Source: an uncultured Methanosarcinaceae archaeon (GTDB taxonomy: Archaea; Halobacteriota; Methanosarcinia; Methanosarcinales; Methanosarcinaceae). From it: 64,000 nucleotides of DNA. The translations under genes and the position numbers were made by a program. The stretch lies in contig CAVTET010000004.1 in assembly GCA_963733675.1 (NCBI GenBank), positions 1 to 64,000 on the forward strand, given 5' to 3'. How positions within the stretch are numbered: the stretch's first letter is position 1; every line of letters starts with the position of its first letter. Under the pieces are notes generated by a model that was not told the origin of the DNA, did not search any database, and worked only from the letters and a program-made list of their open reading frames with translations. Of this stretch, positions 9,285 to 58,155 are shown in pieces.

Positions 9285-10424
9285 ATGTCTTATGACATTT
9301 ACTCGCAGGTTCAGATGATGAAAGCAGTACTAGGCTTAGAAGACGGAACAGTTATCAGTGGCACTGGTTTTGGTGCCGAAGGAACAGCTTGTGGTGAACT
9401 TGTTTTTACCACTCAATTCACAGGATATGAGGAAGCTCTGACAGACCCATCTTATAAGGGTCAGATTTTAATGTTTACTTACCCACTAATCGGGAACTAT
9501 GGTGTCAGCGGGGAGCGTTTCCAATCAGATAACATCCATGCCGAGGGCCTTGTTGTTCGAGAGGCCTGTAAAAATCCTTATCATTATAAATCAACACGTT
9601 GTATTCATGAATTTTTAGAAGATGAAGGAAAACCAGGAATTGAAGGCGTAGACAGCCGTATGCTCACCATAAGGACAAGAGAACGCGGAACAATGCGTGC
9701 AGCCCTTATCACTGGCAATGATGATGGTGAAGAAGCTGTCTCTGTGGCAAGGAATTTTCCGCAGATGACGGACGAAGAACTGATTTCCCTTGTAACCTGC
9801 AAAGAACCTCGTTTTATTCCCGGATCAGATGGTACCTGGAAAGGTAGCAGTAAGCGCAAACATGCAGTTGTAGTTGACCTTGGGATAAAACGCAATATAA
9901 TAAACAACCTGCATAAAAGGGGAATTGACCTTACAATTGTTCCCGCGACAACAAAAATCACAGAAATTGCAGGCTACGAACCAGATCTCCTTATCGTTTC
10001 AAACGGCCCGGGAGATCCGGAAAAGGCAATCGAAGCAATTAATGTGGTAAAAGCTTTTGCAGGCACGATTCCTATCTGTGGAATATGCTTCGGGCATCAG
10101 ATCATCTCCCTAGCTATGGGAGCAAGGACATATAAATTGAAATTCGGGCACAGAGGGGGGAATCAACCAGTAAAAGATTTAGTGGAAAACAAAGTTTTCA
10201 TAACCTCTCAGAACCATGGGTATGCAGTTGACGCTGACTCTCTGGATGGGACGGGGCTATATGAAAGCTATATCAACGCAAATGACAAAACTGTTGAAGG
10301 AGTTTCCCACAAAAACTTGGACATCTTCAGTGTGCAGTTCCATCCTGAAGCCCAGGCAGGACCTATGGATACAGAGGAAACGTTCTTCAGTAAGGTTGTA
10401 AAAGTCCTAGGGGGTGAGATTTAA
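9285..10424 (+). CDS. carA: Carbamoyl-phosphate synthase small chain (true start probably ~9315)
   Basis: LTDPSYKGQI, SNGPGDP, GICFGHQ, QFHPE motifs. Confidence 0.96.
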   Translation: MSYDIYSQVQMMKAVLGLEDGTVISGTGFGAEGTACGELVFTTQFTGYEEALTDPSYKGQILMFTYPLIGNYGVSGERFQSDNIHAEGLVVREACKNPYHYKSTRCIHEFLEDEGKPGIEGVDSRMLTIRTRERGTMRAALITGNDDGEEAVSVARNFPQMTDEELISLVTCKEPRFIPGSDGTWKGSSKRKHAVVVDLGIKRNIINNLHKRGIDLTIVPATTKITEIAGYEPDLLIVSNGPGDPEKAIEAINVVKAFAGTIPICGICFGHQIISLAMGARTYKLKFGHRGGNQPVKDLVENKVFITSQNHGYAVDADSLDGTGLYESYINANDKTVEGVSHKNLDIFSVQFHPEAQAGPMDTEETFFSKVVKVLGGEI

Positions 10425-15313: not shown

Positions 15314-17194
15314 TTAAGTTGGTTGTTTATGGAGCCTATATAAGCAATTTGTTGAAATCGGATGTTTATCGAAATTCTCTGGAATATATTCTGTGTTCCA
15401 AGATTCATTTTGTGACGCGATACCAAGACCAGATAATTTGAGTTGATAATTTGTTAGATCCGAAGCACCTGGATTTGTAGCGATTACTTGGAAATAATTT
15501 TGTATTGGAGTTATTGTTACTTTTAGAGGAATTGCAGAATACTGATGAATGAACAAATAATCAACTTGTATTTTTTCTTTCGATTGCCTCGTGAAGATAT
15601 GAGGATATCTCACAACTCCTACACCATCTTCATTCGAAATATAAGCTTTACTACCATCTATAATGAATATCGTTGAGCTTCCTGTTCTCGAAATATCGTA
15701 AGTGTGCCAATCTCCGAACCAAGACGATCCTATGTTATGGAGATCATAAGTAGACCCTCCTGATTCTAGATAATGGGCACCAGCAATAGATGTAAGGTCA
15801 TTTGAATGAGTTGCCAGTGAATCGGTACTTAACCCAATTTTACATATCTGGCAACTCGGTGAATGGGTTTTTACCCCCACCATAGCTCTCATTGTCAAAG
15901 TGTTATTTTCAATACACCCCCGATTAGCCATTATCCACTCTTCACCATAATTGTAGTTAGTAGGATTTTCCGTAATGGTCAATATATCATTTTTGATATC
16001 CATTTGACCTGTATTTTGTTTATAGTTCCATTTGCTCGGATCCGGAATAATATGGGGATTTGCTTTTAACTGTTTCAGATCGATTTTTTCATTATATGTA
16101 ATTCCATGAGTATCCGAAGTTGTGTCCCTCCCTCCTATAACGTATAAACTACTACCTGAAATAGCAGTTCCCACCCCATCCCTAGGATGTAAACCTAAAG
16201 CAAATCTCTGTGACCATGAATTAGTTGTTATATTATAATAATAAATTTCTGAATGAAAGATGCTTGAAGGCCCCTGACCGTAACCCATAATAATTTTATC
16301 TCCATATAATGTATTCTCACGTGTATGCCTATATACTGAATATGGAGCCGCAGCGAGAGGATTCGACCACGAATTTGAGGACAGGTCATAAGCATATACT
16401 CCGTTACTTCCTATTTTTCCTGAGAGATGTGGGGCTCCTCCAAATAAATATATTTTATTAGTAGCTGGGTAATATACTAAACCACCCCACGAAATGTTAA
16501 CCGGACAATTTGCCAGTTGTGTGTAAATGTCGGTATCTATTCTGTATTTATAAAAATAATTGCCTAGTATGAGATAGGTATTCATGCCATATGTAACCGA
16601 CATCAAACCCTGATGAGAAATAGAAGTAGGCATTTGAACAGGGTCTAAGGTCCAAGAGTTTGTTGTAATGTTATAAATCTGGAGATGAGGAATGGAATCT
16701 AGCCCAAATCTATCGTTACTGCCACCATAACAGTAAATTCTATCTGCGTAATGTACTGTTGTTACCCCCCATGCAGCGATAGGCATTGTCGCACCCTGCG
16801 TCCAAGAATTATTAGCCAAATCATAAATTTGTTCATTGTTGAGAATTATAGAAGATGATGATCCATAGCCGCCAGTCGCATAAATTTTATTATTATACAA
16901 GACAAGAGGTACGTCCGCAGCTCCTGTCAACAAATCTGCCTTTTGTGTGACTAGGCCGTCATATTGTATTGTTGAGGCCGACTTAAAATCTTCAAAAAAA
17001 GTGGGAAATACAGCGTTACCATTTGGAGAAAAACCCACTGCTTTAGTGAGATTGAAGGTTATGGAACTTCCAGATGGAATCGTTTTTGAAATCCATAAGT
17101 TATTATTCCCATCAATCCAGTAAGAAGCAGAAGCATTTGACATCGCGAGTGTACCTAACGCCAGTATTAAAAACAAAGTTAGGTTAAATTTCAT
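15314..17194 (-). CDS. Secreted Kelch-repeat protein with DUF2341-like segments
   Basis: Signal peptide; repeated IYxxGG...YDxxxNSW Kelch blades; GNAVFPTFFEDF and NPGASDLTNYQLKL segments. Confidence 0.75.
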   Translation of the reverse strand: MKFNLTLFLILALGTLAMSNASASYWIDGNNNLWISKTIPSGSSITFNLTKAVGFSPNGNAVFPTFFEDFKSASTIQYDGLVTQKADLLTGAADVPLVLYNNKIYATGGYGSSSSIILNNEQIYDLANNSWTQGATMPIAAWGVTTVHYADRIYCYGGSNDRFGLDSIPHLQIYNITTNSWTLDPVQMPTSISHQGLMSVTYGMNTYLILGNYFYKYRIDTDIYTQLANCPVNISWGGLVYYPATNKIYLFGGAPHLSGKIGSNGVYAYDLSSNSWSNPLAAAPYSVYRHTRENTLYGDKIIMGYGQGPSSIFHSEIYYYNITTNSWSQRFALGLHPRDGVGTAISGSSLYVIGGRDTTSDTHGITYNEKIDLKQLKANPHIIPDPSKWNYKQNTGQMDIKNDILTITENPTNYNYGEEWIMANRGCIENNTLTMRAMVGVKTHSPSCQICKIGLSTDSLATHSNDLTSIAGAHYLESGGSTYDLHNIGSSWFGDWHTYDISRTGSSTIFIIDGSKAYISNEDGVGVVRYPHIFTRQSKEKIQVDYLFIHQYSAIPLKVTITPIQNYFQVIATNPGASDLTNYQLKLSGLGIASQNESWNTEYIPENFDKHPISTNCLYRLHKQPT

Positions 17195-42844: not shown

Positions 42845-43657
42845 TTATTCACGCCAGCAAAGACTCTGAACTAATTCTTCAGTTGTTTCAAAAACAGAGT
42901 CGCTTTCCATAATCGCAGACCCTATCAATACAGCATCTGCTCCAACCTGGATAACTCTCCTAATATCTTCTGCGTTATTCATCCCGCTCTCACTTATAAT
43001 GAGATGTCTGGTCCCATGGTTAACGTCGTACTCTCGGATGAGGGGGGCAAGCTCTTCTGTAGTAGCTAAATCGATTTTAAGTGTCTCAAGACTTCGGTTG
43101 TTAATCCCAATAATCCTTGTGATGGTTTTCAGTGCAAGCTCAAGCTCGGCTCTGTTATGAACTTCAACCAGCGGTTCAAATCCCTTTTGAAGAGTAAGTT
43201 CGACAAAGGTCAGTAGCTCTTTCCCAAGGATACCTGCAATTAGGAGCACCAGATCGCTCTCTACTTCCTCAAGCTGCCTTCTGTCAATAATAAAATCCTT
43301 CCTAAGGACAGGCAAGAATATATTTTCTCTCACTGCATTCAAATTTTCAAGTGAGCCCCGAAAAACTCCTGGCTCTGTTAAAACCGAAATTGCAACAGCT
43401 CCAGCCTGTTCCATCTCCCGTGCAAGCCTTACAGCTGTTGCAGGCAAAATATCTCTGAAAACTTTACCCGGAGATGCAGGTTTGATCTCCGCAATTACTG
43501 GTATTAACCCTTCAGCCTTTGCACTTTCAACCGCAGAGAGGAAATTCCTTTTCTCAAATTGTATTCCAATATATTCAGAGCATTTATGCGGTCCTAAAGC
43601 CTGAAGGCGTGTTTTTGTTGTGGTTAGGATGTGGAGGATAGTGGCGTGCATTAACAA
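42845..43657 (-). CDS. trpC: Indole-3-glycerol phosphate synthase
   Basis: IAEIKPASP, SVLTEP, LRKDFI, GINNR, SESG. Confidence 0.96.
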   Translation of the reverse strand: MLMHATILHILTTTKTRLQALGPHKCSEYIGIQFEKRNFLSAVESAKAEGLIPVIAEIKPASPGKVFRDILPATAVRLAREMEQAGAVAISVLTEPGVFRGSLENLNAVRENIFLPVLRKDFIIDRRQLEEVESDLVLLIAGILGKELLTFVELTLQKGFEPLVEVHNRAELELALKTITRIIGINNRSLETLKIDLATTEELAPLIREYDVNHGTRHLIISESGMNNAEDIRRVIQVGADAVLIGSAIMESDSVFETTEELVQSLCWRE

Positions 43658-43664
43658 TCACTGA

Positions 43665-43690
43665 TGTATATTTAAGTACAATGATGCATA
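43665..43690. promoter_or_regulatory. Putative TRP-box-like operator (TGTATA-N4-AGTACA-N4-TGCATA) upstream of trpC
   Basis: Three TGTACA-like hexamers at 10-bp period between a TATA-like element and the trpC start. Confidence 0.45.
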
Positions 43691-43779
43691 ATACAGCACT
43701 TCTTATAAATAGGTTTTGGATCAAACAGCATTTCCGAATAAAAATAAATAACATGTAGCCTTTAAGGATAATGATATTA

Positions 43780-43806
43780 ATGGTAATAGGATTTACAATG
43801 ATAAAT
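43780..43806 (+). pseudogene. Detached 5' end (MVIGFTMIN) of the Lrp/AsnC gene whose body lies at 55726-55938
   Basis: ATG GTA ATA GGA TTT ACA ATG ATA AAT joins the distal ORF in frame through the shared 12-bp core. Confidence 0.8.
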
Positions 43807-43930
43807 ATGTATATGGAGTCTGGTAGGTTACGCCAGCTGAATTAGCAGCAAGAGTATACGTCAATCCAAGCGATACACTATCACCGATTTTCTGTTGAAT
43901 TTCAGGAGTTAATTTAGTAGGTCTTGCCAT
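43793..43930 (-). pseudogene. Truncated HTH protein resembling terminase-small-subunit-like N-termini (MARPTKLTPEIQQKIG...AGVTYQT)
   Basis: 45-aa ORF with a GGTG RBS; runs into attL. Confidence 0.5.
43795..43806 (+). repeat. attL core ACAATGATAAAT
   Basis: Identical to 55723-55734. Confidence 0.8.
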
Positions 43931-44623
43931 TGATAACACCGTTTTTTACTATTTAAAATAAATATCAATTAATGTTGTATTTATATTTTCTTAGTTCCCT
44001 TTGACACAACGACGGGGTTTATGTGCATAAAATCAAAAATGAGCTATTCTAGAGCGTTTAGACCAAATTAAATGCCCACAATTTTGTTGACAGACGACGG
44101 TGGGTGACCACGAGATATATTTCATATACGTTTTATTACTCTTAAAGTATAGAACTTATGTTATACTTATTCGTATTTGGTCTTTAGATAGGAAATGCAC
44201 TTTTAGATATAGTTGGGTTAAAAAATAAAGCGTAGACTTTATGGGAGAACTGATTTGGGCTGAGTTTTGGATATATAGTTTAGCGACCGTGGTGCATATA
44301 ACAGAGATACTATAGTATAATCTTGATCCTGACAGAGCCCCTGAAAGGATTACGACTGTTTCAGTGTACTGTTTAGCTTTGGCAGTTTGTTCGGTTGCGG
44401 TGGTTTTTGTGATCTATGTTTATCTGGAATTAATTAAAAAATAGTAAATAGCGAATTTATTTGATATTTATTTGATGATTTTCGCTAATTTAAGGAATTT
44501 TATTTGAATTATTTGATTCATTTCAGTAGTTTTTGTCACTTTTATTTAATAATTGAATTGATCTTAGGATTTATTCGTCAATTTATGACTAACATCGGAG
44601 ACGTCAAAAACGTTTATATTCCG

Positions 44624-45400
44624 TTATAACTCAGCCTTCCACTCATTAGCCTGGAATTGCTTCATCATATTCGCATTCTCATCTGGCTTTACAGTACGGT
44701 AAAGATGATGGTCAGATGGAATCACTTCAACCATAATATCGATCATTTCTTGTGGATCGTTCTGATGAGAAAAAATATCTTTGAAGTAAGGGAATTTTAT
44801 TAAATTTTTATCAGGATCGTACCACTGAGATACACTTTCTGCTCCAGTATCATTAAAACCAGTTAGGAATGCGCCTGGATTAATAGTCGCGACTTTCACA
44901 CCATAGGGCTCTAGCTCTTCTTTCATTGCCCAAGCAATGGCTTCGATAGCATGCTTAGTAGCGCAATAAGTTCCTACAAACGGTACCTTAAAAATTCCAG
45001 CCACCGATGAAATCCAAATAACCTTACCATCGCCTTGTTTTATCATTTTACGCGCAAAGCCCTGCGACAGCTCTAGATGACTGAAAACATTTGTCTCAAA
45101 GGATTCACGTACCCTTTCCAGAGGTATATCGACCATTGCACCACTTTCCATAATTCCGGCATTATTAACTAGAATATCAATGTCATAGGTCAGCGCACGC
45201 TGCTGATCGATATAATCTCGAATATCGAGCTTAACTACTTCAAGTTCGATAGCTTGTTCTTTGGCTTCACATCTTAAATCCCAGACCTGGGACCAGATTT
45301 GTGCAGCAGCAATAACTTTATGACCTGCCTTTGCCAAACCAAATGCTATCCCTTTACCAAAACCATGTCCAGCACCAGTAATAAGAATTGTCTTGCTCAT
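44624..45400 (-). CDS. Short-chain dehydrogenase/reductase
   Basis: TGAGHGFG, NNAG, YCATK motifs. Confidence 0.92.
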   Translation of the reverse strand: MSKTILITGAGHGFGKGIAFGLAKAGHKVIAAAQIWSQVWDLRCEAKEQAIELEVVKLDIRDYIDQQRALTYDIDILVNNAGIMESGAMVDIPLERVRESFETNVFSHLELSQGFARKMIKQGDGKVIWISSVAGIFKVPFVGTYCATKHAIEAIAWAMKEELEPYGVKVATINPGAFLTGFNDTGAESVSQWYDPDKNLIKFPYFKDIFSHQNDPQEMIDIMVEVIPSDHHLYRTVKPDENANMMKQFQANEWKAEL

Positions 45401-45508
45401 AATTTCGTCCTTCTTTCTAATTCATTAAATTCATTCCTCCCCCTTTTAGTCTCACAATCTGTCTCGTAGGAGATAGCCTGTGTGTTCACATTCGATCCTA
45501 TTTCAATT

Positions 45509-47863
45509 TCACTGCCGGACCATGGCAATACGCATCTCAGCTTCCTTATCTTCTATCAGTTGGCCGCTTACATCCACAGTCACGCTACGGATCTTGCCTG
45601 TGAACTCAAAGGGAGGACGGTAGTCTGGTGTGACTGGTGATCTATGAGCTGACCCACAGGTTACTCCACCAGTTAGTCCTAATGCAAACGGAGTAGTCAC
45701 AGGTACATCAACTTGACCGACTAACTTTCCATCTATAAATAGCTTAGCAATTCCAGGTGAACCCTTACCATTAGCAAAATCTGGCTTACCTGTTACCTCG
45801 AACTCAAACCCGAGTTGATGTCTCCCTTCAGGAACATTCTCATTGGACTCTACATGATAGAAAGCCCTAGATACGTAGTTGTATACCCAGTGAAGCTTTC
45901 CGTATTTGACATAGAATGAATATCCGCCATCGATACCACCATGAGAGAGTAATATCCCTTCAGCTCCTCCTGCAGGGATCTCAACATCGGCTAAAATACT
46001 ATGCGAGCGGTTGAGAACGTTGACTGCTACAGTTGCGGGGATCTCCTGAGTTCCGGGATAATAGGTGTAGTGCGTTCGATTAATTGTAATACTTGGCCGT
46101 TCATCAGTAATACGCAAAACTCCGCGACCATCAATAGGTAGCACATTATATTTTCCGGCTTCTGCATACCATGTGGAGATCATCTCAATTAATTTCGATC
46201 GATTCTCAGCAGCCACGTTAAAATTCTCTGCCCAATCCTTCTCAATATGATAAAGCTCCCAGCCTTTTGCGTCTAGCTCAGTTAATGTATCTGCAGAAAT
46301 AGGTTCGCCGAATGGTTTTCCTGCTTCAGTGAAAGAAAGGCCAGGCCATGGACATACGGCACGCCAGCCATCATGATACAGTGAGCGGTGTCCCATCATC
46401 TCGAAGTACTGTGTATGGTGCTTGGTTGGCGCATTGACATCGGCAAATGTATGTGCAAAACTTACCCCTTCGATAGGTGATTGACTTACACCTTTGATAA
46501 TAGTAGGAGGTTCAATTCCCAGGCATTCCAGAACTGTAGGTACCATATCAATAGCGTGAGCATACTGAGTGCGAATCTCTCCTTTAGCCTCAATTCCTCT
46601 GGGCCAGTGGACTATAAATGGATCACTTATACCTCCGCGATAAGTCTCTCTTTTCCAACGGCGGAAGGGTGTATTTCCAGCAAATGTCCAGCCCCAGGCA
46701 TAATGGTTGTAAGTCTCTGGACTCCCTAGTTTATCTAGAGCTGCGAGATTCTCCTCGAGAGATTCGAGCACATTATTGAAAAATCTGGATTCGTTAATTG
46801 ATCCCGTGGGACCACCTTCAGCACTTGCTCCGTTATCGGAAATTACCATGATCAACGTGTTCTCAAACTCGCCAATATCTTTCAGTAATTGCAACAGCCG
46901 ACCAATATGGTAATCGGTGTGTTCTAAGAACCCTGCAAAGACCTCCATCATACGGGCATAGAGTTCCTTTTCTTCAGGTGAGCATTTGTCCCAGGTCTTG
47001 ACATCCGGATCATGCCGAGATAGCTCTGTTTCTTTTGGAACTATACTAAGTTCCTTCTGCCGAGATAATGTAATCTCCCGGTAAAAATCCCAGCCGTCAT
47101 CGAATTTGCCTTTGTATTTGTCTGCCCATTCCTTCGGAACATGGTGAGGAGCATGCATGGCTCCTGGACAGAAGTACATGAAAAAGGGCTTGCTAGGTGC
47201 GACTTGTTTGGAGTCAGCAATGAACTGGATTGCCCTGTTCACTATATCCTCATTTAATGTGTAACCCTCTTCTGGAGTTTTGGGAGGGTCTATGGAATGA
47301 TTATCATATATAAGCTCAGGATAATACTGGTTTGTCTCACCTCCTAAGAAACCGTAGAAACGCTCGAAACCCCGTCCCAAAGGCCATCTGTCATAAGCCC
47401 CCGCTGCCGATATCTGTTCTGCAGGGGTCAGATGCCATTTACCGATAGCATAGGTGCTGTAACCATGTTGCAGAAGCATCTCTGACAAAAAGCCATTCTC
47501 AAAAGGTATATAACCATTATAGCCTGGATAACCAGTCGAGCCTTCGGTGATGCAGGCCATGTTGTTAGAATGATGGTTTCTGCCGGTAAGCATGCACGAG
47601 CGGCTAGGTGAGCATAGTGCAGTAGTATGCATATTGGAATAGGCAAGCCCCCCAACAGCTAAACTATCAAGGTTGGGTGTATGGATAGGGCTACCATAGC
47701 ATCCAAGTTGTCCAAATCCTGTGTCGTCCAGGATGATGAACAGTACGTTAGGAGCGCCCTCTTTAGAGCGCAGTGGTTCTGGCCAAGCTGGCTCTGACTG
47801 ATCTTCTGTGCGGGCGATTACACCTGGAAAAGTAGTTCCTGGTTTGTATTCTTTCATTGACAC
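45509..47863 (-). CDS. Arylsulfatase (Cys-type, formylglycine-dependent)
   Basis: PNVLFIILDD, LCSPSRSCMLTGR (CxPxR), GKWHL, SDNG; GTG start at 47863 after GGAGG. Confidence 0.93.
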   Translation of the reverse strand: MSMKEYKPGTTFPGVIARTEDQSEPAWPEPLRSKEGAPNVLFIILDDTGFGQLGCYGSPIHTPNLDSLAVGGLAYSNMHTTALCSPSRSCMLTGRNHHSNNMACITEGSTGYPGYNGYIPFENGFLSEMLLQHGYSTYAIGKWHLTPAEQISAAGAYDRWPLGRGFERFYGFLGGETNQYYPELIYDNHSIDPPKTPEEGYTLNEDIVNRAIQFIADSKQVAPSKPFFMYFCPGAMHAPHHVPKEWADKYKGKFDDGWDFYREITLSRQKELSIVPKETELSRHDPDVKTWDKCSPEEKELYARMMEVFAGFLEHTDYHIGRLLQLLKDIGEFENTLIMVISDNGASAEGGPTGSINESRFFNNVLESLEENLAALDKLGSPETYNHYAWGWTFAGNTPFRRWKRETYRGGISDPFIVHWPRGIEAKGEIRTQYAHAIDMVPTVLECLGIEPPTIIKGVSQSPIEGVSFAHTFADVNAPTKHHTQYFEMMGHRSLYHDGWRAVCPWPGLSFTEAGKPFGEPISADTLTELDAKGWELYHIEKDWAENFNVAAENRSKLIEMISTWYAEAGKYNVLPIDGRGVLRITDERPSITINRTHYTYYPGTQEIPATVAVNVLNRSHSILADVEIPAGGAEGILLSHGGIDGGYSFYVKYGKLHWVYNYVSRAFYHVESNENVPEGRHQLGFEFEVTGKPDFANGKGSPGIAKLFIDGKLVGQVDVPVTTPFALGLTGGVTCGSAHRSPVTPDYRPPFEFTGKIRSVTVDVSGQLIEDKEAEMRIAMVRQ

Positions 47864-48176
47864 ATCTTTTCCTCCAATCGCTAATTGACATTTTGTAAAG
47901 CTCTGAAAGAGAAGGCTAAATAGGGGAAAAAACTTTATTATTTTGACCACTTTTTGTTAGAATTCGTAATTTGGCATGTCCACGAGTTTTTGAAAATTAT
48001 AACCATAAGGCTCGTCCTACATTTCTCTAAAAATGGGAAAAGCACTTGTTTTTCATATTTTATCAATGACTCAAGGATATGACTCACAATTTCTTGCCTG
48101 AAGATCAATTATTAAAAAAATAAAGTGGTTTCCAGAGAGTTTATTCCCTGGTAAAAATCTGCTTTCCCGACTGACT

Positions 48177-48665
48177 TTATTCTTCGGCAAAAGTTGCACG
48201 CAGTTGGCTTTCTTCTTCCTTTGACAGGTTGGTAGCAATTATTTCAAACTTGGACTTTTTCATAACTTCTACTACTCTATCCTCAACAGCATCGCTAGTC
48301 ATCAGGAAGAGAGCTGAAGTGCCTTCAGTCACTTTGTTGCGAACAGACTTTATGAAATCTTCATTAATACCCACGTGGGTCATGGAACCGGCAAATGCGC
48401 CTATTGCTGCACCAGCAACCAGGCCAACCAAAGGAATGAAGAAGAGGATACCAAATAGTAGACCCCAAAAAGCGCCGCTCAGTGCACCTTCACCGGTCAA
48501 ATTAGTCAAGTGCTTTGTTTTTGGTTTAGTTTTTCCTTCAGGCCAAGTGACTATAGCCGCATCATGTAGTTTTATCATTTGTTGCTTACTTAAGTCCTCA
48601 ATCACTTCAAGTTCATTTTCTGCACCATCAGCAGTGTCAAACTTCAAAACTGTTAAAGTTGCCAT
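48177..48665 (-). CDS. DUF1269-family membrane protein
   Basis: DAAIVTWP, GALSGAFWGLLFGILFFIP glycine zipper, TNLSKEEE. Confidence 0.85.
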   Translation of the reverse strand: MATLTVLKFDTADGAENELEVIEDLSKQQMIKLHDAAIVTWPEGKTKPKTKHLTNLTGEGALSGAFWGLLFGILFFIPLVGLVAGAAIGAFAGSMTHVGINEDFIKSVRNKVTEGTSALFLMTSDAVEDRVVEVMKKSKFEIIATNLSKEEESQLRATFAEE

Positions 48666-49133
48666 TACTCAATCTCCTTTCATGCGTTCATATTTATTTC
48701 GCAGTTTTTTGGGTAGCATGCCGATCAAAGCTACACGTCTTTTTGTAATCTTCAACCTGAGAACTGCTACGATTTAGAAGAGCCGAAACAAGTCGTTTTA
48801 TCAGCTGGTAATCTAAAAATTGACCATGCGCTAGGTTGTTATCGGCAGCGTTGCAATCCATTGGTTAGGTGATCCATTAATAAGTATTATGCTTTTTTCC
48901 AATTTAAGGTCCATTCTCTCGCTCAAAATTTTCCCATATAACCGCAACTCTAGGACTTTTACCAGTCCACGGGTTTCTAATACATTCTTTTTTCGCGAGT
49001 CAAATTTTAAATGAATTTATGGGACACGTTGTTGTTTTTCATAATATCGGTTTATAACGATGTAGCTTTATCTGATACGACATATTATCTAAAATGAGAT
49101 ATATATTTGCATTAATTTTATTATCTGAAATCA

Positions 49134-49487
49134 TTATTTGGTTATTAAGGCGTGTGTTTTTAAAGTGGGGTACTCTTCATAACAATTGTCACATAAAACA
49201 GTTACAGTAGGGCTTTTACCCCGTTGTCTTACAGTTTTTATCATCCCACATTTTTCTAACTCATCCAATGCTTTCGGAAAAGCCCAACCTGGGATAGGTA
49301 GAAATAAGTTTATGCCCTTTAGGGTGACTACTAAGTCTTTAGATTTCTTAACTCCTTTTAAATGCCAAATATACATAGCCATCCTGTATGTATGCCCCAC
49401 CGAATTGGAAGGTAACTTTATAATCCATTCTGAAGGCATTTGCGATATGAAAGAGCCTTTTATTTTATCTTTAGAATTCACTAGCAT
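49134..49487 (-). CDS. Small winged-helix DNA-binding protein, candidate replication initiator
   Basis: KALDELEKCGMIKTVRQRGKSPTVTV helix-wing; adjacent to the repeat array and the polymerase. Confidence 0.6.
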   Translation of the reverse strand: MLVNSKDKIKGSFISQMPSEWIIKLPSNSVGHTYRMAMYIWHLKGVKKSKDLVVTLKGINLFLPIPGWAFPKALDELEKCGMIKTVRQRGKSPTVTVLCDNCYEEYPTLKTHALITK

Positions 49488-49588
49488 ACTTTACCCCAGT
49501 TAATATTATCATTAAATATTAAGAAGAAATAAAGAAGATATATTAAAGAAATATAAGTAGTAAAACAGATATCATGAGACGTTAGAAT

Positions 49589-49693
49589 TTAGCTGCACAG
49601 CTAATTAATTTTAGCTGCAGAGCGAAATATATTTTGCTGGGCAGCTAATTAATATTACTCCACAGTTAAATTGGAATTTGGCTCTACAGCTAA
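49589..49693. repeat. Five imperfect 16-bp palindromes (consensus TTAGCTG-CA-CAGCTAA), iteron/origin-like
   Basis: Units start at 49589, 49611, 49633, 49654 and 49678; a very AT-rich tract lies at ~49500-49565. Confidence 0.75.
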
Positions 49694-49739
49694 ATAGAAA
49701 AGTTTGTCCAGAGGCTTTGAGCCTCATTTATGGTGGGTT

Positions 49740-51509
49740 TTACTCTTGTTTTACTTCTGTGAGGATTCGCATAATAAGCTCCCAAGTTTCGGCACCTTTC
49801 TCATCTATATACCTGTCAGGATAGCGGACAATATCGACATCTGTTTTCAATCTGTTACCTGCACCCAAAACGATCTCGGATGCATCACACACCAACTTTC
49901 TCGCTATCTCTATCTCTTTGTCTACCGCCTTTTCGTCGCACTCAATCGTCAACGCATCGTGAACTGGAGCAACAATTTTAATTTTATTTTTTGAGAGAAG
50001 GATGCATGCCACTCTAAGAATTTCAGCTCCAGTAGCTTGGATTGGGAAATTTTGAACGGTCAACATTTCCTTATTACTGGAGCCTGAAACAATCATTTTC
50101 CATTTGTAGCAGGTTTCGATCCTTTTCATTAAACAGGCTTGAGTCCACGTCATATCTACCCAACGCCAATAATTTTTGAAGACTCTTTTGTGATGACTAA
50201 GCAGTTCTTTTGCATAAGGTGTAGGCTTATCAATTTTAAGACCAAGTGATTCTGCACCCAAGCCATACTGAACGCCTAGTACACAGGATTTAAAAAGCTG
50301 CCTCATACTACCATGCGTTTCTTTTGTAGCGTCTGCTGGAACTGCACCTGCCAGTTTTGCAAAAGCCAGATATGGATCCCTACTTCTATATGCCTCAATC
50401 ATATTGGGGTCATTAGAGAGAACTGCCGCAATAAAGAACTCTTGCTGCGCATAATCAATATATGCAAGCACTTTTTCTTCAGTAGGTTTTATTAAACTTC
50501 TCAGACTAGCAGGAAGTCCAAACATAAACCTAACTCTTAATTCTCCTCTATTCTTTTTTTCTTCGTCATCCTTAGGGGCATTTCTACCTGTCTTAGTCCA
50601 GAATGGGGAGATTAAGGTTCGACTCCTGCCATCTGAACCAGCCATAATAGACTTAAAGTTTAACCCACCGATAAGAGCTCTTAATTCCTTTAAAGGCCTG
50701 ATTTCGATATGGATTTCTGCCATTTCCTTAAAAGTTTCCGTGTCTATTTTTGGCAAATCCGTATAAGTTCTTGGCCACACCCAATTATGGACTTGAAGTA
50801 ATCTCACAAAATTATTTATCTTAAAACTTGTACCTTCATAAATTCCAAACTTGTCAATATTTTTGATTAACTTTAATTTTATTTTTTCCCAGTTTTCTTG
50901 TAACTTGTTAAGTAGATCGGTATCTATTGGTATACCATTATACTCAATTTCTGCCACATATTTCATATACTCCCCCCGATATAGAGAAGTTGGTATATCA
51001 AAATCAGGGACTTTAATCATTTGTTTGAATAACTCTGCTGTTTCAAGCACGTCAGATTCACAATAACGCATAATGTATTCTTGATCTTCTTCAGAGTCAG
51101 GACCGCCAGCTAAAATACGATCTCTTGCAGCGTCTTTCTCCACTTTGCTAATGGTCTCTATGCCAAAAGCTTCACACGCATCCAGTAGATTTGCGCCTCT
51201 TCGTTCATAAGAATGATTAGAAAAGCACCTGTACTCCACGAAAGTATCAATGATATTGGATGGTAAAGGCCAGTTTAAGATCAGGTGACGTCCCCACTCC
51301 GCTGAACTCATATGAGCAACAAATAAGTCATTCTCACCTATCTAGTAGGGTGGCTGTGGATTACTTTCTTCAAAAAGCCACATTTTTTTAGTTTCTCCAG
51401 AATTTATCTCATGGGAAGCAACACAAACAGGTATTGGATGTTCGCTCGGTTTCGCGATAAACTCAAAGTCTATCACGTAAATGTTATCAAAAAATTGTAG
51501 GGGGAGCAT
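49740..51509 (-). CDS. Family A DNA polymerase (3'-5' exonuclease + polymerase, no 5' nuclease), 589 codons with an in-frame TAG at codon 56
   Basis: ExoI IDFEF, ExoIII YCESD, motif A DYAQQE, motif B RQLFKSCVLGVQYG, motif C VHD; ATG at 51509 overlaps the upstream TAA; TAG at 51342-51344. Confidence 0.88.
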
Positions 51510-52078
51510 TAAAGCTCGCCTCTGAGTCTCTTTAAAATAGGGTGGTTATAGTCATCTATAAACCGGTCCTTGAAAGCTATCTCGATAGCTTTGACTATGT
51601 TTTCCGGTTCGTCAGGCCATTCAGGTTCAGGAAGTTTACTTATCGCTAAGACGATATCGTAAGCTCCGATTGAGTAATTCCTTTGCAGCTTTACCCATTG
51701 AGTTTCCCCTGTGGTGTATGCGATCCGTCGGGTACGATTGAACTCATTGTCCTTACCTTCCGCGTCAGGTTGGGCTATTTCTGAGAGAAAAATTTCACCT
51801 GACCCGTAGGTAATTCCAACGTGAATTCTGACAAGCTTTAGCCTTTTTGTCTCCATCACCTTAGGATACAGATCTGGATTGAGGAGGTCTTTTCCTTCCC
51901 CTTCACTGTTGCCACCTAAATCCAAGAGAGAAGTGTCGAATTTCCATTCTGGCCCTGGCCTGATCCTGAAAAATTCCACACCAGTGTTGGGTTTTTTAAG
52001 AGGAATTGAAGTCACCACGCGCTTTATAAGGATGGGGGTAACTTCGGTAACTCGGAGAGCCTCAAAGTTAAAAGGCAT
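51509..52078 (-). CDS. Polymerase-associated protein, putative ssDNA-binding/accessory factor
   Basis: Coupled to the polymerase gene (TAATG overlap); GGAGG RBS; PEPEWP...IAFKDRFIDDYNHPILKRLRG C-terminus. Function is an inference. Confidence 0.6.
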   Translation of the reverse strand: MPFNFEALRVTEVTPILIKRVVTSIPLKKPNTGVEFFRIRPGPEWKFDTSLLDLGGNSEGEGKDLLNPDLYPKVMETKRLKLVRIHVGITYGSGEIFLSEIAQPDAEGKDNEFNRTRRIAYTTGETQWVKLQRNYSIGAYDIVLAISKLPEPEWPDEPENIVKAIEIAFKDRFIDDYNHPILKRLRGEL

Positions 52079-52227
52079 CTAAAAAACCTCCATACTTGAA
52101 GTAAAAGTTGCTAGACTATACATGCAACTGCTAGATGCAGAGCTAAAAAAGAAACTATATTTGATATGAAAACTCTATCATTCATAATGCATCACTCTTT
52201 GTTTATGGGTTGATCTGTTCTCGTGGG

Positions 52228-52569
52228 TCACTCGTGCGAAAGTAAGCATCTTTCAGTGGTGTTTTGCGAAATTTCCGACTGCTTGGCCGCTGTGGACATT
52301 CGCGAATCACTAACTGCAACGTTTTTAATTAAGATGGCTTGTACTTTATCATATACATATCCTGTTTTGAGTATCAAAGCAACCTCTACTCTCGTTTTAC
52401 TGTTTCCAGAGTTGCTTCTCCTCTTATCGATGGATGCTCTTATTGGCAGGAGACGTACCTTAGCCATTTTCTCGATTTTGATCATTGTTTTATGTACTTT
52501 GGAAAGATGCTGATCAAGTTTTACATCTATCGTTAAAGTTTTATTTTTATAATATCTATTATTCATCAT
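52228..52569 (-). CDS. Hypothetical protein (element-borne, uncertain)
   Basis: ORF track only; co-oriented with neighbours. Confidence 0.3.
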   Translation of the reverse strand: MMNNRYYKNKTLTIDVKLDQHLSKVHKTMIKIEKMAKVRLLPIRASIDKRRSNSGNSKTRVEVALILKTGYVYDKVQAILIKNVAVSDSRMSTAAKQSEISQNTTERCLLSHE

Positions 52570-52638
52570 GATGCCCTCGATATTTTGATAGCCGGCAGTA
52601 TCTTGATCCGTATGCCGGTTACAATTCTAAGTATATTT

Positions 52639-52881
52639 TCATTTTTCAATTTTACTGTTGTTGTTTTTATCTCTGGATTTACTGATTTCATCCAAAGCAT
52701 AGGCAAAGCTGTCATAAAAGCACCCTGCTTGCAACTTATGGAAGATACAAAAAAAATCAGTATTCAGAGCCAAGTTAAGTTCGATCAAATACCTTAGCTG
52801 GGATAGCTTCTTCTTATCAGGAGTAACTTTCCATTGGATTTGTGGAAGTTTGATACTTCCTACAATCTTGTTTTTAAGCAT
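52639..52881 (-). CDS. Small hypothetical protein (element-borne)
   Basis: 80-aa ORF with GGAG RBS. Confidence 0.5.
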   Translation of the reverse strand: MLKNKIVGSIKLPQIQWKVTPDKKKLSQLRYLIELNLALNTDFFCIFHKLQAGCFYDSFAYALDEISKSRDKNNNSKIEK

Positions 52882-52947
52882 TAATCTCCACTCCTGCTGT
52901 TTTTAATATATCCTTCGCAATAACCCTATTTAACGGATTATCACTTT

Positions 52948-53253
52948 TCAACATGAGCAATAAAACTTCGTTATTTTGCTCACTAACAAGTCTTGCCCAT
53001 TCCGAAAACGAAAAAAATTATCTTTTCTGGTTATAGAGTTCATTACATTCACCTTCTTCCAGATGGTTGTGTTAATCTCGGTTCTGCGGGCCCGGTAAGA
53101 TTCTACAGGAACTGGGGTTATGATAATTCTTTGTTCATTGTCCATTTCGATCTTTACGTTTTCAGGATTCTCTGACCTGATCCACTGTATCGGCAGACTA
53201 ATTAAAAAGCTGCCTCCTTGTCTAAATATTGATCTTTTACCGATATTGAGCAT
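52948..53253 (-). CDS. AbrB/SpoVT-like DNA-binding protein
   Basis: KRSIFRQGGSFLISLPIQWI...VKIEMDNEQRIIITP swapped-hairpin pattern; GAGG RBS. Confidence 0.7.
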   Translation of the reverse strand: MLNIGKRSIFRQGGSFLISLPIQWIRSENPENVKIEMDNEQRIIITPVPVESYRARRTEINTTIWKKVNVMNSITRKDNFFRFRNGQDLLVSKITKFYCSC

Positions 53254-53424
53254 TTATGTTACCTCAATTTGACTTCGATATGACTAATGTTATAATTTTA
53301 TATATAGTTTTATATATTGATAAATAGATTTATTAGAACAACATATTGTGAGATAATAATATACATCCAACATGTTGGTAAAATATCACTATTATTTAAT
53401 AGAAGTTACAATTTGTCTTATAAC

Positions 53425-54228
53425 ATGGAAGAAAAACCTATCAAGAAAACAATAAAAGACAAAATTTTAGAAAGCTTAGTATATTATCCGAAAACAAACA
53501 CTCAACTGTTGCAAGAGCTGGGTTATAGTAATAAACAACATGGTAACATTTCTAAACAATTAAATCAGCTAAAAACAGATGGGTTTATTGTTGATGGAAA
53601 AGAAAAATCTCCAAATATAGATGACTATGCTACATCATGGTCAATAGTTCCAACTCTAGAAAATTTTAGGTATATAGGAAAAGATCCAAATTTAGTACCA
53701 GTGTTGCAAAAAAAAGATGTTGTTCTCGAAATTATTGCGGAGAACATGCGTGTTTCAATTATTCAAGATGTTATTCTGGATATAGACGCTACTAGTTCTC
53801 TTATAAGTAAGAAAATAATTAGAGGAGATCAGGAAGAATTATATTCACTTCTTGAAAAGCCTAAAAGAAAATTTAAGGAAATGTTAAAATTATCTCCTGT
53901 ATTCTTCAAATTTCATCTACTTCATGAAGATTACAACACGGACTCATGGAGTGATTTTGAAAGGGATATTGAAGAATTAGGACATATAGCTAAATTTCAA
54001 CTTATCCCTCCTCGTAATATAGTACGGTATTATCTATTTCTGAATTCATATGATTTTAAATTTTGTGTTGGTATAGATATGTTATATGGAAAATTAAGTG
54101 ATGAGGCAAAGAACTACTGGATTGAAATAAAAAATTATTTGAAAGAAGAAGAAATAAATATTAAGCCCATCACAGAAGCCGTCAGAAAAGCCATCACAAA
54201 ACAAGAATATAATTCTGCATTGAAATAA
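53425..54228 (+). CDS. Winged-helix transcriptional regulator-like protein
   Basis: KILESL..PKTNTQLLQELGY...NISKQLNQLKTDGFI; divergent from the AbrB-like gene; start corrected to MEEKP. Confidence 0.65.
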   Translation: MEEKPIKKTIKDKILESLVYYPKTNTQLLQELGYSNKQHGNISKQLNQLKTDGFIVDGKEKSPNIDDYATSWSIVPTLENFRYIGKDPNLVPVLQKKDVVLEIIAENMRVSIIQDVILDIDATSSLISKKIIRGDQEELYSLLEKPKRKFKEMLKLSPVFFKFHLLHEDYNTDSWSDFERDIEELGHIAKFQLIPPRNIVRYYLFLNSYDFKFCVGIDMLYGKLSDEAKNYWIEIKNYLKEEEINIKPITEAVRKAITKQEYNSALK

Positions 54229-54337
54229 ATTTTCTCTAAAGATCTTTTACCTAAATTTCTAAAAATATTAAAAGAATTTGTATTACAATATTATTGTCTA
54301 ATTGAGGAATTGGTTTCGTTTTAGACAACCATTAAAA

Positions 54338-55640
54338 TTACTTTTCATTTTTAAGCATGGCCTCCTTCAATTTAGAAATTTCGTCAAGCTCCCTTTTTAA
54401 TTCGTTCTTCATTTCCCATATTTTTTCAAGGTCTGCATATTGCATATAGTCAGCTTTGATAGATTCGGTGGCCTTCATTTTTTCTATCTCTGCCTTGAGT
54501 TCCTGCAGCTCCGATCTTTCCACAACATGCCTGGCTGTTTCAGCTTGTAAAATCTGATTTTCCTGTTTGATCCGCAGGTACTCAGGACTTTCTGAGATAT
54601 CCATCTCTTTTTGAATTGTAAGATAAGGCATATATTTTCCAATATCTTTGCTAAAGAGTTTTGATCAGATCGAAAATAAGCGGCTTTAGTTCTATCAATT
54701 TTATGTCCCATTGTAAACTCAACAAAGAAAGAGTCACAACCAACATTTAACAGAGCAGAGTCATAGTATTTCCTTATATTGTGACTTCGCATGATATTCC
54801 ATTTCCCTTTAGGTGTTGATTTACTGGCTTTCTCATTAAGCATTCTGTATATCTTGAGGAACGAATTCCTTTCAAGCTTCCTTAGAGACTCATCTTTTTT
54901 ATCAAGCCATTCAGCAGGTATTTTTCGACCAATGAAAAGGTAATCGTTGTCAGAGTAAACATGTTGCTTCTGTAATTGTTTTTGTTTCCTTATATCGGTT
55001 GAGTCAGATTTCCTATTTCTAAAATCTAAATAATCAATTACTGCTTGACTAGTTTCTGGCGTCAGAAATGTGATAAAATCTACCTTAGTTTTACCTCTAC
55101 GTAGTTTTAAAGTTGTTATTCCAGTTGTGGAATCATATCTATCCTTGAAGTTTCCAACTTTTAAATTTATGATCTCATTTGAACCTAATCCACTGCTTAA
55201 ACCTACTAAAACTACAGCTATTTCTAGCGGATCAGCCACTTTTAATATTATTTTAATATCATTTTTTGAAGTATCTCAATGTTACTTTCTAATACTGTGG
55301 ACTCAAGATTCCTTTGTTTAGGAAATTGAATATTATAATATGTATAAAATGACTGAATAGCCATTATATAACCTCGAATAGTGTTTGGAGCAAGATTCTT
55401 GTTTTTTAAATGCTGTTTAAATCTAGGAATATCAACGAAGATCGATCTTTCATCCATTAGCATTCCTGCTTTAATCTCAGCTTTAGCTTCAGTTATAAGT
55501 TGATCTGGGATTTTGGACAGAAACTCACAGTAAGCATTTATAGAATGCGTATAATTTCTTCTGGTATTAGATGAAGCTTCAATAGCTAACATCCAATTGT
55601 CTACCTTGGTAGACAATACAAAGTTAATATCAACAGTCAT
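54338..55640 (-). pseudogene. Tyrosine integrase broken by two apparent single-base deletions (~55271, ~54641)
   Basis: Three consecutive ORFs join into one protein: SAM-like N-terminus, SSGL, RRGKT, HNIRKYY, MGH, AYFR, PYLTIQKE tail. Confidence 0.85.
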
Positions 55641-55722
55641 AAGTAATTACCTCTATCATTTCATCCATTTTAAAATATTCGTTTTCCAAAAAATTTAGGG
55701 TTGTGTTACCATATACGGTATA

Positions 55723-55734
55723 ACAATGATAAAT
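55723..55734 (+). repeat. attR core ACAATGATAAAT
   Basis: Identical to 43795-43806. Confidence 0.8.
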
Positions 55735-55938
55735 GTGCTGCCAAGCTATGAAAAGGCAGCATATAGGGAATTTAGGACTATAGAAGGAATTAAAGACGTT
55801 TACCATGTCTTTGGAGAATATGATTTTGTAGTAATTATTAATGTCAAAGACCTTAGCACACTTAATTCAGTAGTGGACAGGATAAGGGAAAGCGAAACAG
55901 TAACCGCTACCCAGACAATTGTTGGGGCAGATCTTTAA
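55726..55938 (+). CDS. Lrp/AsnC ligand-binding (RAM) domain protein, 5'-truncated by the element
   Basis: VYHVFGEYDFVV, IRESETVTATQT motifs; the first 6 codons are found at 43780. Confidence 0.85.
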   Translation: MINVLPSYEKAAYREFRTIEGIKDVYHVFGEYDFVVIINVKDLSTLNSVVDRIRESETVTATQTIVGADL

Positions 55939-56289
55939 ACTGGAAGTCTCAAAATAAGATTAGGCCGTTTGATGTAAATGAAAAACATATATTTTTTAAA
56001 AAAATTCTGGATTTTTATACTTTAAACTTTTATCGACATCAATCTCTTGCTTCCAAAATTCTCATAAATAATTCGGTTTGAATAATCACCACAAAAAACT
56101 ATATTGAAATTTATGCCGAAGAAGAGACATTGATAGAAAGAATATTTTATCGTTGCGAGAAAATACTACTAATAAAAGCATCTATAATCTAAATTCCTGC
56201 CTCAAATATTTATAAGGTAAATAATAAGAGAACATTAGTTTTATTCTAAGGAAATGTTAGATTAATTTTTCAACCTGAGGTAAAATTCT

Positions 56290-58155
56290 ATGGAAGTCCC
56301 TATTGCAGAAGAACTTGCCAAAAAACAAAAGTCTATAAGTGTCGCCGAATTTTTTGAAAAAAATAGGCACATCCTAGGTTTTGACTCTGCACCACGAAGC
56401 CTTATCACAACAGTAAAAGAAGCCGTTGACAACGCTTTGGATGCCTGTGAAGAAGCAGGAATCCTGCCTGACATCCTTATCCAGATCGAAAGGGTGGAAC
56501 AGGACTATGTAACCGTCATTATAGAAGATAATGGACCAGGAATCATAAAAGAGCAAATACCAAAAGTTTTTGCAAAATTACTGTATGGTTCGAGGTTTCA
56601 TTCCCTCAAACAGAGCAGGGGACAACAGGGAATCGGAATCTCTGCAGCCGTGCTCTATAGCCAGATGACCACAGGCAAGCATACGAAAATCCTCTCCAAG
56701 ACAGGACTTAATACCCTGGCCCATTATTATGAGCTCATGATCAATACCAGCACGAATGAGCCCGATATCCTGAAAGACGAAGTAAAGGATTGGTTTCGCG
56801 CCCACGGAACCCAGATAGAGCTGGAGATGAAGGCTGCTTACGTAAAAGGAAGACGGCAATCTATTTATGAGTACCTCAAAGCCACAGCAATTGTAAACCC
56901 TCATGCAAGGATTACCCTGGTCGAACCTGACGGCAACGAGGAAGTTTTTGAAAGGGCTACAGATAAAATGCCGGACCTTTCAGAAGAAATATTGCCCCAT
57001 CCAGAAGGTATCGAGCTAGGTACTCTTATGAAAATGCTGCATCACACAGAGCGCCAAAAACTTGCCTCTTTTCTTAGATACTCTTTTTGTAAAATCGGCC
57101 TACTCACTGCCGAAGAAATATGTAAGGCTGCAGGGCTTGACCCTGAAATAGACCCTCATTTTCTTAGCCATCATGAAGCAAGAAAACTAATTGAGTCATT
57201 TGAGAAAGTAAAGATCATGGCGCCTCCCACAGACTGTCTTTCCCCAATAGGCGAAGAGCTGATTTACAGGGGGCTTGAAAAAGAAACAAAAGTGGACTTT
57301 ATTGCTACAAGCACACGAAAACCGGCTGTATATTCAGGAAATCCCTTTGTAGTAGAAGTGGGGCTTGCTTACGGGGGAAATTTATCGAAAGAAGAAAAAA
57401 TTAGCATAATGCGTTTTGCTAACCGTGTTCCTTTGCTTTACCAGCAAGGAGGATGCGTGACCACACACGCAGTTGAAGATATTAAGTGGAAGCAGTACGG
57501 CTTAAACCAGCCCGGAGGAGGAATTCCTGTAGGTTCAGCCCTCCTTCTAATTCATGTAGCTTCCATCAATGTGCCTTTTACATCAGAATCAAAGGACGCT
57601 ATTGCTGACATTCCTGTGATAAAAGAAGAAGTGAACCTTGCAATCAAAGATGTTGCCAGAAAACTTAAACACTATTTGAGCAAGCAAGACAATCTCAAGA
57701 AACGCCGAGAAAAAGAAATAATTATCACAAAAGTGCTCCCAAAAATGGCATTGAAGGTTGCAAATATCCTGGGCAAAGAGGTTCCTGACATAAATCCTGT
57801 TGTTGCAATGATTATGGGGAATCTGCTTGTGTACAGAAAAGTGAAAAAGAATGAGGAAGGGACTGCACATATTGTAATCAAAATCAAAAACTTTGGGAGC
57901 TCAACCCATTCCTTCAGGATACATGAGATGCTGCCCTGGACAATCAGCAGGGCAAAGCCTGAGCCAAAAATGGTTACTATAGGCAACGATTATGACTATA
58001 TATGGGAAGTTTCGGCAGCAGTAGGGTCTTCAAAGGTGCTCAGCTACATAATAGAACATGCAACAGACAAAGAGCTAGGAAAACTCCCTGATCTCATTGT
58101 AGAAGGGATCGAAGAAGAGCTGGTTACAGGAGCAAAGGCCTTTAAGGAGATATAA
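56290..58155 (+). CDS. top6B: DNA topoisomerase VI subunit B
   Basis: [35 protein letters not shown] motifs. Confidence 0.97.

Follow-up and report, generated by a model that had tools for sequence, protein, structure and literature searches.

A 64,000-nucleotide stretch of the genome of an uncultured Methanosarcinaceae archaeon (contig CAVTET010000004.1, positions 1 to 64,000; hereafter the window, its genome being G000) contains an 11,916-bp element integrated into the start of a small gene, which encodes a stand-alone ligand-binding (RAM) domain of the Lrp/AsnC type. Site-specific integration at the 5' end of this RAM gene is proven by empty sites in related genomes. The element is decaying, the same site has been used recurrently within the genus, and the body of the gene is under purifying selection in the genomes in which the site is occupied. 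The explanation we consider likely is that the gene has remained in use since the integration. An element with a classical, non-suicidal tyrosine integrase would have recombined its attachment site, attP, with a 9-12-bp core (CAATGATAA) at codons 6-9 of the RAM gene. This would have carried the native promoter, with the first six codons, to the left junction (attL), 11.9 kb from the gene body, and set one arm of the element's attachment site, the P arm, before the body at the right junction (attR). An ATG inside the core would then have become the start of a 70-residue protein, and the replacement promoter would be a conserved A/T-rich box of the P arm whose end lies 27 nt ahead of this ATG. 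The element would have decayed afterwards, leaving it immobile today.

Several observations demonstrate the integration itself. Firstly, the window contains exactly two copies of the 12-mer ACAATGATAAAT, at 43795-43806 and 55723-55734 (the positions reported in a preliminary description of this DNA), each on the plus strand; the chance expectation is 0.05 matches, and two copies were reached in 0 of 100 shuffles. Secondly, joining the outer flanks reads ATG GTA ATA GGA TTT, the core, then GTG CTG and onwards as a 76-codon frame, which was checked by script and corresponds to the open reading frame (ORF) that the same description had reconstructed. Thirdly, the nearest relative compared (G019, locus L002), at about 90% identity, has the two flanks directly joined: 807 bp match on the left and 577 bp on the right, and the overlap between them is exactly the 12-bp core. 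Fourthly, an intact 76-codon gene (MVIG[F/V/I]TMINVLP...) was found in eight of the nine relatives' loci inspected, the ninth locus ending 6 nt short of the core. The six N-terminal codons vary between species mostly at third positions, hence the MVIG[FVI]T codons of the stub are coding; once restored, the G000 gene differs from that of G019 at 2 of 76 residues. The contiguous flanks and the intact genes of relatives therefore establish that the unoccupied site, attB, is real and can be reconstructed, and the former contradict the possibility, raised at the outset, that the stub and body come from different asnC paralogues. Being short (12 bp) and A/T-rich, the repeat might be attributed to chance, or to target-site duplication by a transposase. 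Yet the boundaries match the empty site to the base, the ends of the insert carry no transposase, and the same core is both used by an orthologous integrase in another genome (G073) and found flanking remnants in four more. The G019 empty site, the use of the core in G073 and the remnant junctions refute this origin, to which we attach practically no credence.

The target is smaller than the Lrp/AsnC gene originally proposed. The 70-residue frame is open and matches the Pfam family AsnC_trans_reg, the Lrp/AsnC ligand-binding domain, at 1.6e-11, in agreement with the earlier suggestion that the core ATG could start a 70-residue protein. In the intact 76-residue protein the RAM domain is the sole match, with no helix-turn-helix. 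The nearest solved chains are 75-residue stand-alone AsnC-type proteins (2e1a and 2cvi, E about 5e-4), and the six-residue offset in their alignment corresponds to the N-terminus missing from the 70-residue form. An AlphaFold model of the 76-residue protein (mean pLDDT 91.4) consists of a single βαββαβ domain, in which the first strand, β1, spans residues 2-10 (block mean pLDDT 93). Hence the assignment holds for an AsnC-type ligand-binding domain, but the target is not a DNA-binding, full-length (about 150 residues) Lrp/AsnC regulator.

The tyrosine recombinase at the end of the element is matched by its family profile above the cut-off: Pfam Phage_integrase scores 37.4 bits for the catalytic piece in the window and 49.8 bits for the G073 orthologue (cut-off 27.1), with a further 33.2 bits for the SAM-like N domain. 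Comparison with the intact G073 orthologue confirms that the window's gene is broken, the SAM-like N domain, catalytic domain and coiled-coil tail lying in three different frames, with shifts near 55263-55269 and 54643-54655. Tyrosine recombinases share the catalytic pattern R...K...HxxR...H/W...Y. Among 18 aligned members of this integrase family (not counting the row for L023, a paralogous element discussed below), R179, K181, H284, R287 and Y319, in G073-frame numbering, are invariant, while the usual Arg-I position reads GL[S/G/A]xx[E/D], with no Arg, in all 18. The C-terminal coiled-coil tail is present in all members of the family (L028-L062). The G073 integrase is 86% identical to the window's in the catalytic part, whereas the nearest paralogue within the genome is only about 48-51% identical. 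As to whether homologous integrases sit beside asnC genes, the closest intact one does and more distant relatives do not: among the 24 other integrase loci of the family in the genus, the RAM gene lies within 1.5 kb only at that of G073, and at 0 of the 23 others (47-60% identity).

When the intact G019 attB region was used to scan 59 genomes of the genus, 49 gave a match, and the matched regions were then fetched. Six genomes, including G000, have type-1 junctions, where one side carries the stub with a core copy, and the opposite side the P arm, the core and the gene body. The inserts between them measure 11.9 kb in G000, 33.7 kb with an intact integrase in G073, and about 3.5 kb, 1.45 kb, 0.94 kb and 0.3 kb in G045, G013, G018 and G020 respectively, these last four being remnants that retain only the P arm and up to about 70 N-terminal codons of the integrase. 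Three further genomes (G052, G072 and G069) may also be occupied; they are left out of the count of six, some of their sequences ending at contig borders. A tree of the RAM gene and 720 nt of top6B (19 genomes, 930 columns) places the type-1 occupied genomes at four separate positions: G000, whose sister G019 is empty; G020; G073 with G045; and G018 with G013. This implies at least three to four integration events, as judged from a tree built from the locus itself.

The G073 island and the window's element have nothing in common besides the integrase. The island (L052/L068, G073:C1 about 1119981-1153654) contains an AEP-type primase, an insertion sequence (IS; DDE_Tnp_1), an MtrA-like gene and an arsenic-type cluster, consisting of ArsR-like regulators, an ArsM-like methyltransferase, a low-molecular-weight phosphatase, ArsP_1 permeases and an SBF/ACR3-like carrier.

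A second integrase lineage, about 31-34% identical to the first, adjoins the stub side in G046, where about 29 kb separate the stub from the body, and in G008, where these lie on two contigs. The repeat at these type-2 junctions, (A/T)TGGTNATAGGAGTN of about 15 bp, spans codons 1-5 of the RAM gene, and the element side supplies a new start codon (TTG or ATG) along with new upstream sequence; each reconstructed type-2 attP has a flanking inverted repeat. These observations invite a broader proposal, which could well be right and could slightly more easily be wrong: that the first 25 bp of the gene are a hot spot contested by two unrelated integrase lineages, at which the type-1 P arm donates an outward promoter and the core ATG serves as a leaderless start, such that the gene survives six residues shorter and the arm stays behind as a domesticated promoter in at least three to four lineages.

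One further genome has an arrangement that is not explained by simple integration. In G074 (L064, about 3975-4038 and 1295-1564), two copies are present of the native promoter, stub and core; a type-1 P' arm and 2.4 kb of other DNA follow one of them, and the other leads into an intact gene, with the core reading CAATGGTAA.

Comparing the junctions separates the conserved parts of the attachment sites from incidental ones. The core common to all type-1 junctions is CAATGATAA, of 9 bp; the exact positions of strand exchange are inferred. The P-arm consensus is an A/T box, then GGNTGTG-N3-CCATWTWC-GGTATAW, then the core, and the last 31 nt of the P arm before the ATG include 24 invariant columns across seven lineages, while the 60-70 nt further upstream are poorly conserved. 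The P' arms at four junctions carry an inverted CCWTWTWC motif in three cases (GTATATGG in the window, GTATAAGG in G073 and GAATAAGG in G074), with TTACAAGG in G045; the distance from the core to the motif is 10 nt in G073, G045 and G074, as against 4 nt in the window, which is 6 bp shorter. Joining the inner flanks of the window's element gives CCATATAC-N20-GTATATGG, from arms at 55709-55716 and 43809-43816 (checked by script). The perfect 8-bp inverted repeat previously described is therefore real, and exceeds chance expectation, though not overwhelmingly, since inverted repeats of at least 8 bp centred at most 3 nt from the core arose in 44 of 5000 shuffles of two 40-nt arms. But it is not conserved as such, related arms carrying the degenerate inverted CCWTWTWC instead, and both its perfect form and its N20 spacing are peculiar to the decayed copy in the window. 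The ATTTA-CAATGA-TAAAT symmetry of attB, which had also been pointed out, was rejected as chance, being reached in 1766 of 5000 shuffles; most relatives' attB sites are without it, the left side reading GGAGTC-A or GGTGTT-A.

The evidence that the gene has stayed in use comes from its body. The 70 codons are open in all six occupied genomes, an in-frame stop lying 10-19 codons upstream and the core ATG being the first start. Mean pairwise ω (Nei-Gojobori) is 0.065 in 13 comparisons between occupied genomes and 0.064 in 57 between empty ones. The remnants of G018 and G013 are homologous (605 bp at 88% and 174 bp at 90%), and between these two genomes the gene has accumulated 12 synonymous changes and no non-synonymous ones. 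In all 12 public contigs with the P-arm motif, the motif is fused to the gene body, with a full integrase in two, a stub of about 68-72 codons in eight and none in two; the count of the P-arm pattern among genome contigs (one record) is unusable as a frequency, as the motif is visible in other genomes' loci. A gene dependent on excision for its function would not have persisted intact so long after loss of the integrase. The A/T box in the P arm ends 27 nt before the core ATG; upstream of the native start codon, at about 29 nt, the native promoter region contains a comparable box. Such spacing would fit archaeal TATA-box promoters and leaderless mRNAs. The target gene is therefore probably not switched off in the occupied state, and from the position and conservation of its boxes the P arm is most likely a replacement promoter for a leaderless or short-leader transcript. 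By analogy with the other lineages, the 70-residue form would also be expressed in G000 itself.

The preliminary description had favoured a different role for the element, as a reversible switch: integration would silence or truncate the RAM gene, and excision would restore all 76 codons. Joining the outer flanks would indeed restore a perfect 76-codon gene, and integration takes away the native promoter and half of β1. Most of the stretch is present in eight soil-metagenome runs, and contigs (Logan) from three DNA runs and one RNA run were placed on 43300-56400. The occupied form is bridged at attL by one contig (X1 record 1) and at attR by two (X1 record 8 and X2 record 24). No attB (43806|55723) or attP (55722|43807) joint is listed among the contigs of these four runs, although contigs cannot show absence or rare forms. 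One contig (X5 record 32) starts exactly at 55723, which could mark an assembly branch between occupied and empty forms, and is a weak hint only. Free attP was absent from the 12 public contigs with the P-arm motif, and pattern scans of viral contigs for P arm with core and core with P' arm gave 0 matches. Further evidence against the switch is that the integrase lies in three frames, with only a distant paralogue in the genome, and four species that retain nothing but integrase-less remnants still conserve the gene body at ω of about 0.06. Purifying selection is the same in occupied, remnant-bearing and empty genomes, and a switch is accordingly a very improbable account of this locus.

The same contigs show other departures from the assembled sequence. 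X1 and X2 contigs join 52091 to 52463, skipping 371 bp, the shorter side being only 28 nt, and one X1 contig leaves the window's sequence at 55270, at the first integrase frameshift; variants of the element may coexist in the samples. The RNA run (X17) contributes a small share of short pieces only, one of them 55577-55727, and supports no conclusion on transcription.

A more serious rival to continued use of the gene is simple insertional inactivation in G000, in which a recent insertion left the 70-residue frame unexpressed or non-functional, with decay not yet visible. Several points weigh in its favour, or more generally against the explanation we prefer. The insertion in G000 is recent: the gene body is only eight substitutions from that of the empty-site sister G019 (six synonymous and two non-synonymous differences), which is too young to show selection, hence retained function in this genome rests on analogy with the other lineages. 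The 70-residue form loses five of the nine β1 residues of the AlphaFold model, residues 2-6, and might be impaired by this. The G000 P arm is somewhat unlike that of other lineages, and both it and the P' arm, with its 6-bp shorter spacing, differ from the G073 type. The case for a promoter in the P arm draws on position and conservation only, and integrase-binding sites could also explain this conservation. The ω values come from 70 codons in related, non-independent genomes, and the tree of integration events depends on the locus itself. However, junctions of this kind are maintained under purifying selection in five more genomes, from at least three further positions on the tree, and in G000 the A/T box and both blocks, GGNTGTG and CCATWTWC-GGTATA, are retained, as is their spacing from the ATG. 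We therefore regard inactivation as unlikely, and prefer integration followed by decay of the element and continued use of the gene through the core ATG and the P arm.

The coordinates of the element, its genes and the flanking host genes are collected in Table 1.

Table 1. Features of the integrated element, its attachment sites and its host flanks (window coordinates)
Feature	Coordinates	Strand	Basis or match
trpC (indole-3-glycerol-phosphate synthase), left host flank	42845..43657	-	Pfam IGPS 1.2e-61; contiguous with the RAM gene in G019
Native promoter region and first five codons of the RAM gene (ATG 43780), split from the body	43660..43794	+	Matches positions 1-151 of the intact G019 attB region
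Truncated terminase-small-subunit-like (TerS-like) gene; tail runs into the core	43793..43939	-	
attL core copy; the 9 bp CAATGATAA common to all related junctions at 43796-43804	43795..43806	+	
Integrated element, 11,916 bp	43807..55722	.	Missing at the same site in G019 and other relatives
GTATATGG, right arm of the 8-bp inverted repeat, in the P'-arm remnant	43809..43816	+	
Cargo block: short-chain dehydrogenase 44624-45400, sulfatase 45509-47950, DUF1269 membrane protein 48177-48665	44624..48665	-	Pfam
117-residue gene kept in the element family	49134..49487	-	No family match
Family-A DNA polymerase with N-terminal exonuclease part; one in-frame TAG at 51342-51344	49740..51509	-	Pfam DNA_pol_A 1e-25; phrog_17 7.4e-51
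189-residue backbone gene; paralogues at 88% and 69% identity	51509..52078	-	No family hits
303-residue backbone gene	53317..54228	+	74% identical copy in L050
Tyrosine integrase pseudogene; start 82 bp from attR	54338..55640	-	Pfam; tblastn of the intact 419-codon G073 orthologue
P arm: A/T box 55688-55697, GGGTTGTG 55698-55705, CCATATAC 55709-55716, GGTATA 55717-55722; candidate outward promoter	55641..55722	+	
attR core copy, including the ATG at 55726	55723..55734	+	
70-codon body of the RAM gene, open; an in-frame stop lies 10 codons upstream, with no start between it and the ATG	55726..55938	+	
top6B, right host flank, conserved neighbour of the RAM gene	56290..58155	+	Pfam Topo-VIb_trans 8.7e-67; order-wide synteny

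The window's element is decaying, as shown by its integrase frameshifts, the TAG codon in its polymerase gene and the truncation of the TerS-like gene at its left end, and would now be immobile. Its structure is best read against a colinear, compact paralogue (L023) on the same contig, which is without the cargo block and encodes a TerS-like protein of 138 residues, a 118-residue protein, a polymerase of 683 residues in one frame, a 336-residue protein and an integrase of 429 residues. The 138-residue protein matches phrog_4102, a terminase small subunit, at 2e-20. In the window, the 48-codon ORF at the left end consists of codons 1-41 of a TerS-like gene followed by seven unrelated codons, the paralogues being about 140-149 residues long, and homology to these ends at 43818, 11 bp from the core. 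The initial candidates for this ORF, an excisionase-like gene or an IS end, were rejected in favour of a truncated N-terminus of this multi-copy gene. In L023 the TerS-like gene is complete and lies about 650 bp inward of the presumed boundary, hence the window's element has probably lost about 1 kb at its left end, most of the P' arm included. The TAG is the only lesion of the polymerase gene, and the paralogue has Ser at this position in the read-through translation. Methanosarcina-like hosts decode some TAG codons as pyrrolysine, and the codon may be read through in this Methanosarcina-like host. Several small ORFs also lie within the insert, beside the 303-residue gene. Of the genes looked for in a provirus, Pfam and PHROGs recognised a TerS-like gene, a polymerase and an integrase among the ORFs of the element, but no capsid, portal, large terminase or tail gene; the element therefore looks like an integrative plasmid or a satellite-like element rather than a complete provirus.

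The L023 element, at about 166.9-174.8 kb of G000:C4 (L023 about 2904-10834), is apparently intact, and absent from the matching flanks in G019, although these are on two separate contigs. A search for repeats found no convincing flanking repeat; the boundaries are possibly near 2903 and 10835, where a 7-bp repeat, ACTAAAA, is shared. The TerS-like helix-turn-helix family (about 140-149 residues) is greatly expanded in G000, with 35 tblastn hit rows, of which 14 are open over at least 136 residues, and there are dozens of copies in G019 too. These genes often precede sulfatase/DUF1269 cassettes, or the 117-residue gene and polymerase module. Integrases of the window's family number only 4-5 in G000.

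The host neighbourhood of the RAM gene differs from that first emphasised. Divergent transcription from trpC was seen only in G000 and G019: trpC was not found within 3-18 kb upstream of the RAM gene in G004, G005 or G015, and the neighbour conserved across the order is top6B. In one sister family (G027, G032, G036 and G040; four of four), only a few bases separate the end of the RAM gene from top6B, suggesting that the two are transcribed together; genomes of the window's genus have a gap of about 200-400 bp or more. Two genomes show irregularities in or near the gene. In G005 (L020), whose site is empty and whose genome is 84% complete, the 70-codon body is interrupted at codon 16 by an in-frame stop (…AAYRE*RNIEG…), which could reflect a sequencing error, a true pseudogene or a recoded codon. 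In G015 (L019), identical copies, of about 75 bp, of the first 25 codons of the RAM gene lie at 11685-11760 and 15535-15610, with one base lost before AATG; they are 3.85 kb apart, within a duplicated unit containing UPF0228, and 3-7 kb upstream of the intact RAM gene, with no integrase nearby.

Archaeal integrases are known mostly from tRNA targets, and among prophage regulatory switches ('active lysogeny', as at comK and sigK) the element interrupts a regulatory gene that precise excision restores. The RAM gene site is unlike these switches, in that reversible excision was unseen, the integrase is broken and the gene is maintained while occupied. The closest functional analogue is provided by the dusA-specific integrases of bacteria, which target the 5' end of a gene, leave the original 5' end as a remnant and supply a putative promoter, the gene being thought to be still expressed (PMC4482086). 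The two systems share a protein-coding target hit at its 5' end, a 5' remnant left behind and new upstream sequence from the element. The dusA system is nevertheless bacterial, with another integrase clade and another target, and its islands are described as supplying replacement N-terminal codons (PMC4482086). Here, the type-1 elements supply no codons and the core ATG shortens the protein by six residues; only the type-2 elements of G046 and G008 bring codons.

Archaeal elements have also been described within protein-coding genes. One of them, NitGar-E6, occupies an AsnC-family regulator gene of Nitrososphaera gargensis, and the 14 thaumarchaeal cases with protein-coding targets are described as 3'-distal in their genes (PMC6563490; PMC8371274). 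NitGar-E6, as outlined there, resembles the window's element in being an archaeal tyrosine-recombinase element with short att sites, an AsnC-family target and verification by empty sites. In contrast to the thaumarchaeal cases, the present target is codons 6-9 of a stand-alone RAM gene; two integrase lineages have used the site repeatedly within a single genus, and the gene outlasts the element. According to a review of such integrases, their protein-coding targets have been tested neither for recombination nor for the dyad symmetry that these offer (PMC8371274). The MGE1 and MGE2 elements of Methanosarcina mazei are described as non-viral tyrosine-integrase elements with replication genes, such as a primase-helicase, that recombine at the 3' part of tRNA-Leu (PMC4779613). 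On that description the G073 island is of the same general kind but differs in its target, the RAM gene rather than tRNA-Leu; neither 'AsnC' nor 'topoisomerase VI' occurs in that paper. In the SSV-type 'suicidal' integrases of archaea, the integrase gene itself contains attP and is split when the element integrates (PMC7253208). The window's attP, unlike these, lies 82 bp upstream of the integrase start, and both parts of the gene are at the attR end, broken by frameshifts (at about 55266 and 54650). A description of this Methanosarcina site was not found in the literature searched, although supplementary tables (such as Table S2 of PMC6563490) may list comparable targets.

The element itself is ordinary and decaying; what is notable is the recurrent 5'-end att hot spot in a small conserved gene, used by two integrase lineages. 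The locus constitutes a compact comparative set for the questions of recombination and dyad symmetry at protein-coding targets: a single 9-bp core is occupied in six genomes, four of which hold integrase-less remnants, and empty in many others. The intact orthologous integrase of G073 could serve in assays, and the second lineage uses an adjacent 15 bp. For annotation, this process accounts for the 70-residue 'AsnC' ORFs that follow an integrase stub in several Methanosarcina-like genomes. The comparisons suggest that the gene survives integration, with the att arm staying as its upstream region. The locus shows how integration at the 5' end of a gene can be tolerated, and how an att arm may become a host promoter. 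If the hot-spot proposal is borne out, this would be the first archaeal case of targeting at a 5' gene start accompanied by promoter donation, and would constitute a natural record of the replacement of a promoter by an att arm.

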